Shown here: positions 6,654 through 15,098 of the stretch, piece by piece | Position numbering within the stretch: position 1 is the stretch's first letter | Layout of the letters: every line of letters begins with the position of its first letter | Origin: Candidatus Kaiserbacteria bacterium | GTDB lineage: Bacteria; Patescibacteriota; Minisyncoccia; Phycocordibacterales; UBA918 | DNA length: 64,000 nucleotides | Reading direction: 5' to 3' | Assembly (NCBI GenBank): GCA_016204695.1 | Contig: JACQKD010000014.1 | Coordinates: 18,562-82,561, forward strand | The notes under the pieces: model-generated | Told to the model about the DNA's origin: nothing | The model's input: the letters and a program-made list of their open reading frames with translations, nothing else | Database searches by the model: none | Made by a program: the position numbers and the translations under genes

Positions 6654-9600
6654 ATGACCGAAAATATCAAACTGTTTTCAGAGATTTCCAAGGACGATGC
6701 GGCGAGTGCCGGGGGGAAGGGTGCGTCGCTCGGTGAGATGACACAAGCGGGGATACCGGTGCCGCCGGGATTTGTGGTACTCGCTGGGGCATTCGAGCAG
6801 TTTCTCGAGGAGACGGATCTGCTTGCGGAAATAGATACGATTCTCCATACGGTACAGAAAGAAGAGATGCATACGGTGGAACATGCATCCGAGAAAATTC
6901 AACAGCTTATCTTGGAAGCCAAGATGCCTGCCGACATTGCCGCAGAAATCGAGAAACAATTTAAAGGGCTGGACACCCCGTACGTCGCAGTCCGATCAAG
7001 CGCGACCGCCGAAGACAGCTTGAGCGCCGCGTGGGCGGGACAGCTCGACAGTTATCTCAACACGACTGCCGATACGCTTCTTCAGAATGTTCAGCGCTGT
7101 TGGGCGTCACTTTTTACGCCGCGCGCTATCTTCTATCGTTTCGAGAAAGATCTGCATACGACGAAAATCTCCGTCGCAGTCGTCGTGCAGAAGATGGTCG
7201 AAAGTGAAGTGTCGGGCATCGCCTTCTCGGTGCATCCGGTGACGGAGGATCGCAACCAGCTCATTATCGAAGCGGGCTTCGGCCTCGGCGAGGCGATCGT
7301 GTCGGGACAGATCACGCCGGACAGCTATGTGGTCGAAAAGAACCCGCGCCGCATTATCGATGTCAGTCCAAGCACGCAGAGCCGCGCGCTCTACCGGGCG
7401 GCAAACGGCGGGAATGAATGGAAAGACATTGCCGAGCCGGAGGCATCCTCGCAGGTGCTTACCGAAGAGCGGATATTGGAACTGGCCGGACTGATTCTCA
7501 ACATAGAAAACCATTACGGTTTCCCCTGCGACATCGAATGGGCGTTTGAAAAAGGGACCTTCTATATTGTCCAAAGCCGCCCCATTACGACACTTTCTTC
7601 CGCATCCCAGGCCACCTCTTTGCCCTTGTCTCTTGATCCGAAGAACTACACCTATGTCGGTTTATACAAATCACCGCCGTCCGCTCTTTGGTATTGGTCA
7701 TCCTGGTATGACGCCGAGCTATCTAAAGAACTGGATATCCCCGAAGAGTTCGAGGCATATTTCGGATTGCGCGGGGGGTACAACTGGTGCCTAAAGAAGA
7801 CAGAGGAAGGTTTTAAAGAATTGGTTGCGGCCAAAGTGGAGGCGGGCGATGTCGGGTACTTCGATTCGATCTATGCGACGCTCGACCGGGAATTCGAGCA
7901 TGCAGAAACATTTGCTAAAGCCCTCGGCACGAAAGTCGAGCGCACAAGCTACGAGGAGTTGGTGGCGCATGGCCGCAAGCTCGCATTCTTCTGCTTTATC
8001 AACTGGCAGATTTCGCAGCAGTTCGATCCTATTTTTAAAGATGCAGCACAAAGTGCCGGGATCAGCGAAGACGCCATACAGAGCTATGTACCCCTCCCCA
8101 AGACGCGTTTGAATGAGCAGCATGACGACGTCGTGGAAATAAAGAAGATGATCGAGTTGAAGGGTCTGTGGGAGCTTCTCAAAGAAGATGCGACCAAAGC
8201 TATATCGGAAATGCAGTCCGATTCGGAGTTGCAGGGACGGATAGACCGCCATCTCAAGACATATGCGTGGCTCAATATCCAAAATTGGATCGGCGAGCCG
8301 CTGACACTTGAAAAGCTCCTGGAGCAAATGACGCTCATTACCTCACACGAGGCAGATCCCATCAAGGCTGCTCCGTCTGGATTCGAGAAATATGTACATA
8401 TCGCCGAACGGATCGGCAAGCTGCGCAATGCCGGGATCGAGGACTTCTCCATCTATATGCACGCCGTCATGCCGCATCTCGAGCAACTTGCAGAACGCGC
8501 AGGTATCACGTACCGAGACCTTCTTCTGCTCACGCCGCTTGAAGTATTTTCCGGAGATTCGCTTGCAACGGATATGCGCGAGAAAATCTCTCGTCGACAA
8601 AACGACAATTGGTGCGTCTATCCGAATCTGGAGACCCGAAGCGTGGAGATAACCGACGACACGGAGGTGATCGCCAATATCGCCGAGCGCTTCTTGCCGA
8701 AGGTCGAAGTCTCCGAGGATGGCAGTATCAAAGGACAAGTGGGTAACAAAGGGAAGGCGATCGGTCCTGTTCGCGTCATTATTGCCACCGATGATTTTCA
8801 TAAGATGCGACCGGGAGATGTGCTTGTCACGCCGATGACCACGCCGGACTTCGTACTCCTCATGCAACAGGCGGCGGCAATCGTGACCGACATGGGCGGA
8901 TTGCTCTGTCATGCGGCAATCGTCTCGCGCGAGCTCAATAAGCCCTGTGTGATCGATACGAAGTTTGCGACACAGATTCTCCGCGACGGCGATATGGTGG
9001 AGGTCGACGCCGACAACGGCGTCGTGCGCCCGCTTATAAACGAGATCACCACCATCGACTGGGAACTGTGGATACGCAGGCAAGATCAGCCGCCATTTCT
9101 TATTTCACTATGGATGCCGATGGAAGGACCGATGATGGCGTCCCGCATTGGCGGAGGATTTACAAAACAGCTCTGCTTGCGATACGCCGACGACACCTTG
9201 TGGATCCGCTCGTCTTCGGACATGAAGCAACTGATGCGGAATATTCGAGAATTTCTCGCCGGTCAGTCTTCGGGTGCTCTGGCAACATTGTTTGCGACTG
9301 CAGATACAATCGCAGAACAGACTCCGGAGTTTATGAAAGAAGTACAGAGGTACCCGGAAGAAAAGTTACTCTCCGATTTTGAGTCGCTCATCAAACGTGT
9401 GGTGGAGATAGCGTTCTATACCACTTCGATGCCGTATTTCGCCATGGAGGCAATCGGCACAGATGAGGTCGAGATACCCAATGCGGAGCAGATACGCACC
9501 GGAGCCGAGAAACTCCGCGCAACGTCCTTTTACGTCGAACTTAAGACAAAAGTACTCGACCGGATAGTCCGGGCATTCGCCAAGAAATATACTATCGACG

Positions 9601-14079: not shown

Positions 14080-15098
14080 ATTCGCGCCCGTATACCAAAC
14101 TGTTCACGCGCGACAACGGCCTACTGGTCTTCGAGCTGTGGTATGAGAGCGAGGTAAACCATTTGGAGAAATGGTTGGGATGGGCGCCCAAGAGCTATCT
14201 ACTGCACGCGGTCGAAGGCGTCACCGAAGTCTATTATGATCCGGCTGATCTCGAAGAACTGAATCGCCGGATTGCCGCGAAGCTGAAAGACACCGACTTT
14301 CTTCCAAATCTCATTTCCTGGTACAAAGAAGCGCTTGTGCCGCTTCAACGTGCGTGGAAAGAAAGGAAACCGTTGGGGAGCACGAAAGCGCTCGTCGAGC
14401 TTTTTGATAAGGGTGCTCTCGCCTGGTCGGGACTCGCGATCACGTACTTGATACCGAATCTACCGGAAGGCGAAGCGAGTCGTGACCAGACCTCTGCGGC
14501 ACTCGCGGCGCGTACGGAGACGGAGAATTTTTTTGATGATACCGACCAAGTCTTCCTCATGACACTGCGAGCGTTATTTCCCAGTCTCGGTACACGTTCA
14601 CGATATATTCTCGCAGACGAATTACGCAGAGACGCCATTCCGGAAGAAGATGTGCTCGCGAAGCGCGAGAAACATTTCATCTTCTACCGCGGCACGCTAT
14701 ATACCGACATGACTCTGGAGATGTTTGCGCATGACCACGACATCCGTCTCGAAGAAGAAACCATATCGCAATCCGGCGAGATCAAAGGACAGATCGCCAT
14801 GGGCGGAACCGCTATCGGAAAAGTCCGCGTAATTCTGAAAAAACAGGACATACCGCAGGTCGAAGAAGGAGAAATATTGGTCACCACCATGACAACTCCC
14901 GACTACCTCCCCGCAATGAAAAGAGCGGCGGCGTTTGTCACCGACGAGGGCGGCATCACGTCGCATGCGGCGATCATCGCGCGCGAATTCAAAAAGCCCT
15001 GCATCGTCGGCACCAAAATCGCGACGAAGTTCCTCAAGACCGGCGACACGATAGAAGTGGATGCCGACAAGGGGATCGTGCGAATTTTGGAAAGATAA
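14076..15098 (+). CDS. PEP-utilizing enzyme mobile-domain protein (paralog)
   Basis: C-terminus GGTAIGKVRVIL...GEILVTTMTTPDYLPAMKRAAAFVTDEGGITSHAAIIAREFKKPCIVGT. ATGA start/stop overlap with the upstream gene. Confidence 0.75.
   Translation: MNSRPYTKLFTRDNGLLVFELWYESEVNHLEKWLGWAPKSYLLHAVEGVTEVYYDPADLEELNRRIAAKLKDTDFLPNLISWYKEALVPLQRAWKERKPLGSTKALVELFDKGALAWSGLAITYLIPNLPEGEASRDQTSAALAARTETENFFDDTDQVFLMTLRALFPSLGTRSRYILADELRRDAIPEEDVLAKREKHFIFYRGTLYTDMTLEMFAHDHDIRLEEETISQSGEIKGQIAMGGTAIGKVRVILKKQDIPQVEEGEILVTTMTTPDYLPAMKRAAAFVTDEGGITSHAAIIAREFKKPCIVGTKIATKFLKTGDTIEVDADKGIVRILER

Follow-up and report, generated by a model that had tools for sequence, protein, structure and literature searches.

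Among the enzymes described so far, two kinds come closest to the locus presented here. Rifampin phosphotransferase (RPH), whose mechanism has been published (PMC4844700), carries an ATP-grasp domain, a rifampin (RIF)-binding domain and a C-terminal swivel phosphohistidine (His) domain in one polypeptide. In the two-component dikinases PpsAB (phenylphosphate synthase), CreHI and HpeHI, which have already been characterised, the ATP-grasp protein and the protein made of a binding domain and a His domain are separate and associate transiently, and the latter component is a homologue of RPH (PMC12167813). Here we describe five consecutive open reading frames (ORFs), named A to E, that fill positions 6654–15098 of the + strand in a 64,000-nt stretch of a Candidatus Kaiserbacteria genome (the window). 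Together they encode one ATP-grasp domain and six modules, each consisting of a putative substrate-binding domain (X) followed by a swivel His domain. On balance, we favor the interpretation that this locus is a multiplexed dikinase of the RPH or two-component HpeHI type.

What appears to be new, judging from the sequences compared, is the presence of six to twelve divergent modules per ATP domain, the long and short forms of X, the variety of fusions and the constant association with phosphatases. No description of such arrays was found in the literature on the candidate phyla radiation (CPR) or DPANN in connection with phosphoenolpyruvate (PEP)-utilisers, dikinases or RPH.

One ATP-grasp domain and six swivel phosphohistidine domains

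The tight coupling of the five genes, proposed in a first-pass annotation of the window, was confirmed at each junction. A and B overlap by 19 nt, C and D by 8 nt (ATGAGTGA) and D and E by 4 nt (ATGA), and B and C are separated by a gap of 10 nt. These overlaps are of the type predicted to couple translation. A longer, TTG-initiated ORF for gene B crosses the His2 domain of A in a different frame. For gene D, the NCBI record (HY416_03800, 429 aa) places the start about 51 codons 3' of the ATG at 12637 (window 12637–12790). Because the residues W11, F13, Q16 and R18 of D, all upstream of the NCBI start, are kept in orthologues, the longer ORF overlapping C by 8 nt was taken as the real gene. 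Both D and E are 100% identical to proteins annotated as hypothetical in a Candidatus Kaiserbacteria metagenome-assembled genome (MAG), which bears out the CPR origin supposed in the first-pass annotation.

Searches with Pfam profiles located PPDK_N solely in A, at residues 18–320 (E 4.5e-97). PF00391, the swivel His domain, was found twice in A (E 1.2e-47 in total, 159.8 bits), and B–E each end with a single copy (E 6e-24 to 7e-28, about 84–96 bits per domain), always above the gathering score of 23.1 bits, and PF02896, the PEP/pyruvate TIM barrel, had no match in A–E. The first reading of the sequence, with six His domains, two of them in the first gene, an ATP-grasp domain in that gene only and no TIM barrel, is therefore upheld. 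A local hidden Markov model of the His domain detected no copy in the 64-kb window besides these six.

The catalytic His, in the motif T-x-x-GG-x-x-(C/S)-H-A-A-I-x-(S/A)-R-E, is present in all six modules, and the His, the GG and the RE are retained in every one of the 79 modules collected from the window and 15 related loci. The ATP-grasp domain of A retains the motifs GGK22GA, VAVR114SS, AGQ, EAGFGLGE, DIEWA and QSRPIT, and the lysine of the first has the same residue number as Lys22 of RPH (PMC4844700). When compared with the sequences of the PDB, this domain matched the ATP-grasp domains of PEP synthase and RPH.

The DNA segments coding for the six His domains are 63–71% identical to each other, and for this reason the domains represent old, not recent, duplications; recent tandem duplication was rejected on the same grounds. 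A PEP synthase gene (ppsA) split by frameshifts was also rejected, since none of the ORFs is interrupted and X has no relation to the PEP/pyruvate TIM barrel. In addition, the fused 1160-aa gene A recurs without a single difference in another assembly, recorded separately (Logan SRR12113383) but possibly built from the same reads as the window record. Given the low DNA identity and this second record of gene A, the array was considered a real feature and not the product of recent duplication or of a damaged ppsA, and the circumstances named beforehand as fatal to the first-pass annotation (no match to PF00391, or a split ppsA) do not apply. The coordinates of the genes and domains, and of the genes immediately upstream, are given in Table 1.

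Table 1. Genes and domains of the array and of its upstream neighbors (window positions)
Feature	Position	Strand	Description	Basis
Gene A	6654..10136	+	1160 aa: ATP-grasp - X1 (long) - His1 - X2 (short) - His2	ORF, Pfam
ATP-grasp domain of A	6654..7613	+	aa 1-320; only one in locus	PF01326 E 4.5e-97
X1 of A	7614..8765	+	aa 321-704; long-form putative substrate-binding domain	iterative profile link to D and C
His1 of A	8766..9038	+	swivel domain; catalytic His753, codon 8910-8912	
X2 of A	9039..9851	+	aa 796-1066; short-form X domain	profile alignment to long form and E
His2 of A	9852..10121	+	swivel domain; catalytic His1115, codon 9996-9998	
Gene B	10118..11194	+	358 aa from first ATG: short X + His (His315, codon 11060-11062)	
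Gene C	11205..12644	+	479 aa: long X + His (His435, codon 12507-12509)	
Gene D	12637..14079	+	480 aa: long X + His (His439, codon 13951-13953)	
Gene E	14076..15098	+	340 aa: short X + His (His297, codon 14964-14966)	
His_Phos_1 gene	5944..6561	-	histidine phosphatase superfamily, 205 aa	PF00300 E 1.9e-11
Second His_Phos_1 gene	4008..4841	-	277 aa	PF00300 E 2.7e-12
333-aa protein	4860..5861	-	between the two phosphatase genes; membership in system uncertain	ORF

The X domains, their predicted fold and their relation to known dikinases

Within the window, the His domains share 48–64% pairwise identity and the X domains only 11–17%, a combination that would fit a shared docking partner with divergent ligands. 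The divergence of the N-terminal domains had been noticed in the first-pass annotation, and it is now clear that they nevertheless belong together, as iterative profile searches joined all six X domains into a single superfamily. These searches covered 448 sequences (database matches plus ORFs of related loci) and used a conservative database size. The long form of X, of about 385–390 aa, is found in A_X1, C and D, which align to each other over their full length, and the short form, of about 250–270 aa, in A_X2, B and E. A_X2 matched E from end to end, and in the long form its alignment covered the first ~145 residues and the last ~100. This agrees with the secondary structures in the AlphaFold models of D and E, both of which open with strand-helix-strand-strand-helices and have helix-helix-strand-strand-helix immediately before the swivel domain.

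Direct searches of 5.8 billion proteins returned 11 matches for the X domain of D, four for that of E and one for A_X1, and the homologues of the latter two were too few for deep alignments. The family of D is the best conserved of the modules and is present in both CPR and DPANN. Its orthologues show 38–58% identity over the full length, and across the related loci the family has 29–53% identity in the best aligned segment; the other X families evolve fast. In the hinge that precedes the swivel domain, E315 (of an 'LTxxE' motif) and R335, in D numbering, are invariant in the 29 aligned D-type modules; across all 79 modules, each of the two is conserved in 70% or more. In the 79-module alignment, five of the six window modules also show a basic residue paired with an acidic one some 100 residues ahead of the swivel, D having a nearly invariant E281 instead. 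In RPH, the phosphotransfer residues of the binding domain are R666, E667, K670 and Q337 (PMC4844700), and the pair and E281 are candidates for their counterparts. The X domain of the D family contains many invariant Trp, Tyr, Glu and Gln residues, a pattern of aromatic and polar positions typical of a ligand pocket, and its sequence conservation makes D look like a housekeeping ligand-binding domain.

The structure prediction proposed in the first-pass annotation was carried out and pointed to RPH. The AlphaFold model of D, for which 10 homologues were used, had a pLDDT of 88.4 and a pTM of 0.84. In a Foldseek search with this model, the top six matches were all RPH-Lm entries (E 6.5e-14 to 7.5e-10), with TMq of 0.51–0.52 for the four wild-type entries and 0.28–0.33 for the two G527Y mutants. 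The next matches, PPDK and pyruvate kinase, had E values of about 1e-7 and TMq of at most 0.21, and RPH is the only solved structure matching D past its His domain, that is, over X plus His. According to this confident model, the middle domain of D is folded like the RIF-binding domain. A profile of the D family restricted to X gave no meaningful match among the PDB sequences, and the likeness of X to RPH in the model is at the level of the fold only. The kinship of HpeH and RPH was drawn from evidence of the same kind and strength (PMC12167813).

Among described proteins, RPH-Lm (PDB 5FBS/5FBT/5FBU/5HV1; PRK06241-type 'PEP synthase-like') has its ATP-grasp, binding and C-terminal swivel His domains in the order of residues 1–795 of A. 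It also has the same catalytic His motif and a hinge that aligns in sequence (D 306–477 to RIF_Ptrans_rph 699–861). However, RPH has one module per polypeptide, whereas here six modules accompany one ATP-grasp domain and four of them are on separate proteins. Furthermore, B–E are without a grasp domain, some X domains are about 140 residues shorter, no sequence similarity between X and the RIF-binding domain is detectable outside the hinge, and phosphatase genes are attached to the locus. With 425.9 bits against a cut-off of 999 (NF041857) and 298 against 1700 (NF000283), A falls under the curated equivalog cut-offs of the Rph models, and it was therefore rejected as an Rph orthologue.

The resemblance to PpsAB, CreHI and HpeHI lies in the division of the ATP-grasp and X-His parts between separate proteins, as the related loci described below have a free-standing grasp protein of about 320 aa adjoining X-His genes. 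In those systems, however, there is one H per I, the H proteins have about 600–640 aa and are about 45% identical, the substrates are phenolic and the genes lie in aromatic-catabolism operons with carboxylases. Here there are 2–12 divergent modules of 340–500 aa per grasp domain, in CPR and DPANN hosts and without such a context. The models PRK08296.1–5 matched the swivel end only, that is, the last ~80–130 residues (B 236–357, C 363–477, E 230–340), with scores of 86–106 bits (the best, 106, for C) against a cut-off of 578. No module reached any PRK08296 cut-off, and identity with an H component of the PpsA/HpeH type was rejected because of the restriction to the swivel end.

PEP synthase and PPDK share with the locus the swivel His domain and the ATP-grasp domain, for which they provide the best NCBIfam and PDB sequence matches of A, but here the PEP/pyruvate TIM barrel is lacking and the domain that the His domain follows is another, helical one. 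For want of that barrel, and with A at 536.5 bits against a cut-off of 598 for the PEP synthase model NF005057, this identity was rejected too. The plant and algal enzymes GWD and PWD are likewise dikinases with a swivel His and a non-pyruvate acceptor, and their order of binding domain, His and ATP domain recurs in the relatives P0138, P0163 and P0054. GWD, however, is a single giant protein with CBM45 starch-binding modules, and no carbohydrate-binding module was detected here. The phosphotransferase system (PTS), finally, resembles the array in that Enzyme I/NPr have the swivel His fold, one donor enzyme serves several carriers, and SixA offers a parallel to a His_Phos_1 phosphatase as a possible reset. 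It differs in using PEP as donor through a TIM barrel and in its HPr/EIIA carriers, none of which is encoded here, and the PTS Enzyme I models matched by their swivel part alone (25–57 bits against 341.7).

Related arrays and associated phosphatases

Examination of contigs encoding homologues of D, together with a scan of GTDB species genomes, yielded 15 distinct further loci; L005, being the same contig stretch as L002, is counted with it. Their hosts are Patescibacteria (Kaiser-, Taylor- and Saccharibacteria) and DPANN archaea (Woesearchaeota and Nanoarchaeota), and the Nanoarchaeota locus also encodes an archaeal-type primase. The survey of related CPR genomes suggested in the first-pass annotation has thus revealed the same kind of array in other CPR and in DPANN, groups to which the arrays found so far appear to be limited. 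D-like genes were also seen in L007 and L012, two short contigs of 5.7 and 6.5 kb whose MAGs carry the labels Bacteroidetes and Gammaproteobacteria; these are probably mis-binned CPR/DPANN contigs and not true occurrences outside those groups.

A census with the His and grasp profiles counted 2–12 modules in each locus, accompanied by one ATP-grasp domain at most. The locus L014 has 12 modules within 21 kb, L003 at least ten together with one free-standing 322-aa grasp protein, and L009 a free-standing grasp protein followed by nine modules. Free-standing grasp proteins of 254–335 aa occur in L002–L004, L008–L010, L013 and L016, and in the window the grasp domain is fused to two modules. When the profile of the X domain of D was run against 1.84 billion representative proteins, 685 relatives were found, 141 of them below 1e-10. 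Most of these are 470–510 aa long, and the few that have names are from Micrarchaeota and Nanoarchaeota. Several are fusions: grasp-X-His (P0022), a grasp domain with two or three modules (P0018, P0036), two modules without a grasp domain (P0017) and the permuted order X-His-grasp (P0138, P0163, P0054). In a Saccharibacteria MAG (L015, 28–6357), a 2109-aa ORF unites an ATP-grasp domain and four X-His modules in a single polypeptide, and is followed by three more X-His genes and one His_Phos_1 gene. The layout that had been proposed for the window, an RPH-type enzyme followed by a panel of binding-domain/His modules, thus finds support in the unity of the X superfamily and in the natural fusions grasp-X-His, grasp-(X-His)2-4 and X-His-grasp.

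Phosphatase genes accompany the arrays. In the window, the nearer of the two upstream His_Phos_1 genes is divergent from A, with a 92-nt spacer between them. Its RHG motif is intact, as is its second catalytic His (VGHA), and the farther gene likewise has RHG and the second His. Orthologues of the nearer gene lie within the arrays of L001 and L009, and relatives of the farther one immediately after those of L002/L005 and L011. Further upstream, the Logan SRR12113383 assembly contains a third His_Phos_1 gene and a HAD hydrolase. Genes for His_Phos_1 or LMW-PTP (PF01451) proteins were found within or adjoining every array with enough flanking sequence (L001, L002/L005, L003, L004, L008, L009, L010, L011, L013, L014, L015 and L016), several of them on the opposite strand, and family-specific phosphatase profiles found none away from the arrays in the same loci. 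In NCBIfam, SixA was the best, though weak, match of several of these phosphatases (23–30 bits against a cut-off of 74.5).

The 333-aa protein encoded between the two window phosphatases had no Pfam, NCBIfam, PADLOC or PDB sequence match and no counterpart in the related loci, and no PADLOC defense-system model matched A–E or the three upstream genes. In L001 (2566–4239), a 557-aa protein composed of an N-terminal helix-turn-helix (HTH_26), an X and a swivel His domain is encoded directly upstream of the grasp-X-His gene and might serve as a transcription factor linked to phosphotransfer. Fic/DOC-domain genes stand beside or between X-His genes in two independent arrays, those of L002/L005 (13438–14493) and L014 (18310–19392). 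Two M20 peptidases and an OTCase-like gene are interleaved in the array of L003 (2051–5784), and a gene like MtxX (methanogenesis marker 4) in that of L004 (4396–5202).

Phosphatases and housekeeping genes make up the neighborhood. In the window, directly after E lies a gene for a PNPOx-like FMN-binding protein (15061–15654, +), whose first ATG overlaps E by 38 nt and for which an alternative ATG exists at 15163; it is not conserved next to other arrays. Cell-wall enzymes are encoded just downstream (15731–18311), among them an M23 peptidase with PG_binding_1 (15731–16735) and a VanY/M15-type peptidase with PG_binding_1 (17451–18311).

Proposed mechanism and alternative explanations

If the locus is a multiplexed dikinase, the lone ATP-grasp domain, with which A begins, would present ATP to the swivel domains. 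The catalytic His would attack the beta-phosphate, the gamma-phosphate being released as inorganic phosphate and AMP leaving, to give His~P. The charged swivel domain would then turn back onto its own X domain and pass the phosphate to the acceptor bound there, probably a small molecule. Charging would take place in cis for both modules of A and in trans for B–E, as in the charging of HpeH by HpeI, a mode of action for which CreHI and PpsAB are further precedents (PMC12167813). Service of all modules by one grasp domain is suggested by its single occurrence in each array, the fusions in both orders, the far greater conservation of His than of X and the coupling of the genes. Since the six X domains are very different, six different acceptors would be expected. 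The His_Phos_1 phosphatases, and those of the LMW-PTP type elsewhere, may dephosphorylate the products, so that phosphorylation would be transient as in the Hpe pathway, whose gene cluster combines the dikinase with the phosphatase HpeD (PMC9618137); alternatively, they might reset the His~P carriers.

Several observations weigh against this interpretation. The sequence similarity of the X domains to RPH, PpsA and HpeH is confined to a hinge of about 60–80 residues before the swivel. The model of the short-form protein E (pLDDT 83, pTM 0.65) aligns with RPH over 160 residues only, and hhalign of the X profile of D against the E family gave nothing significant, the link between the long and short forms having come from the iterative searches on the larger sequence set only. 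For these two reasons, the RPH-like fold is directly shown, at the level of a model, for D only, and for the other modules we infer it. Co-transcription of A–E is suggested by the spacing of the genes; a promoter and terminator scan of 3800–16000 gave counts not above the shuffled expectation and was uninformative on this point. There are 1–3 phosphatases per 3–12 modules, and both phosphatase families include protein phosphatases (acting on phosphohistidine, phosphotyrosine or phosphoarginine), so a common His~P carrier is no less fitting a target for them than diverse products. Lastly, the HTH-fused module and the Fic genes hint at regulation.

These last points are also the strength of a different explanation, in which the locus is a regulatory phosphorelay or protein kinase hub. 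The His carriers would then be signalling phospho-proteins, with a logic like that of the PTS or of VadK, and the SixA-like and LMW-PTP phosphatases would turn the system off, with His~P or other proteins as their targets. The phosphatases would be in line with it, since they accompany every array with enough flanking sequence, are greatly outnumbered by the modules and come from two families that include known protein phosphatases; so would the SixA matches, the HTH fusion in L001 and the Fic genes in L002/L005 and L014; a PPDK-derived autophosphorylating regulatory kinase, VadK, is known (PMC13400623). We nevertheless consider this explanation unlikely, as the X domain of D is predicted to have the fold of a small-molecule-binding domain with the invariant residues of a ligand pocket, the arrays encode no receiver, HPr-like or other known phospho-acceptor protein, and the SixA scores are far under the family cut-off. 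A special case of the multiplexed dikinase is a detoxification battery, in which every module would have its own antibiotic or toxin to inactivate by phosphorylation, the way RPH acts on rifamycins. RPH is indeed the closest solved structure, most X families are fast-evolving and nearly without homologues, as expected in an arms race, and a survey of CPR resistance-like genes includes rph-like genes (PMC8651080). Co-located phosphatases would, however, undo the inactivation, the conservation of the D family from bacteria to archaea suggests a housekeeping ligand, the score of A is far under the Rph equivalog cut-off, and the locus has no resistance context, which together make this special case quite unlikely.

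The system might also run in reverse, the modules taking phosphate from energy-rich compounds and the ATP-grasp domain making ATP from AMP and inorganic phosphate, as PEP synthase or PPDK does in some anaerobes. The reactions of PPDK and PEP synthase are reversible, and CPR and DPANN organisms are fermenters with a poor energy metabolism; it is on this general background that the idea is based. Reverse operation would be thermodynamically possible just for enol, acyl or N-phosphates, Pfam detects no PEP/pyruvate domain in A–E and the phosphatases of the locus would waste the donors, so it appears very improbable. An artefact, be it a standard ppsA/PPDK gene broken by frameshifts or mis-assembled repeats, is refuted by the intact ORFs with X domains unrelated to the TIM barrel, the limited DNA identity of the repeats, the second record of gene A and the orthologous arrays in many genomes.

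The genomes of CPR and DPANN organisms are typically about 1 Mb in size. Cells with so little DNA devote 8–20 kb to these arrays, and much of their physiology is unexplained. If the locus is a multiplexed dikinase, the RPH/HpeHI paradigm would be widened from one enzyme with one substrate to a modular, combinatorial kinase, and the X domains would supply new ligand-binding domains whose substrates can be directly screened. More tentatively, and with considerable doubt, we put forward that CPR and DPANN share a hitherto unrecognised phosphoryl-distribution hub. In it, one ATP-grasp domain would charge up to a dozen interchangeable, fast-evolving carriers, each for a different scavenged or host-derived compound, and dedicated His_Phos_1 and LMW-PTP enzymes would close the cycle. 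Such a hub would amount to an ATP-driven counterpart of the PTS and would rank as a major means of phosphorylation or sensing in ultra-small symbionts. The constant pairing with phosphatases, and a best conserved module family common to bacteria and archaea, point to a conserved cycle of phosphorylation and dephosphorylation, possibly connected with symbiotic life or with genes exchanged between these two radiations.

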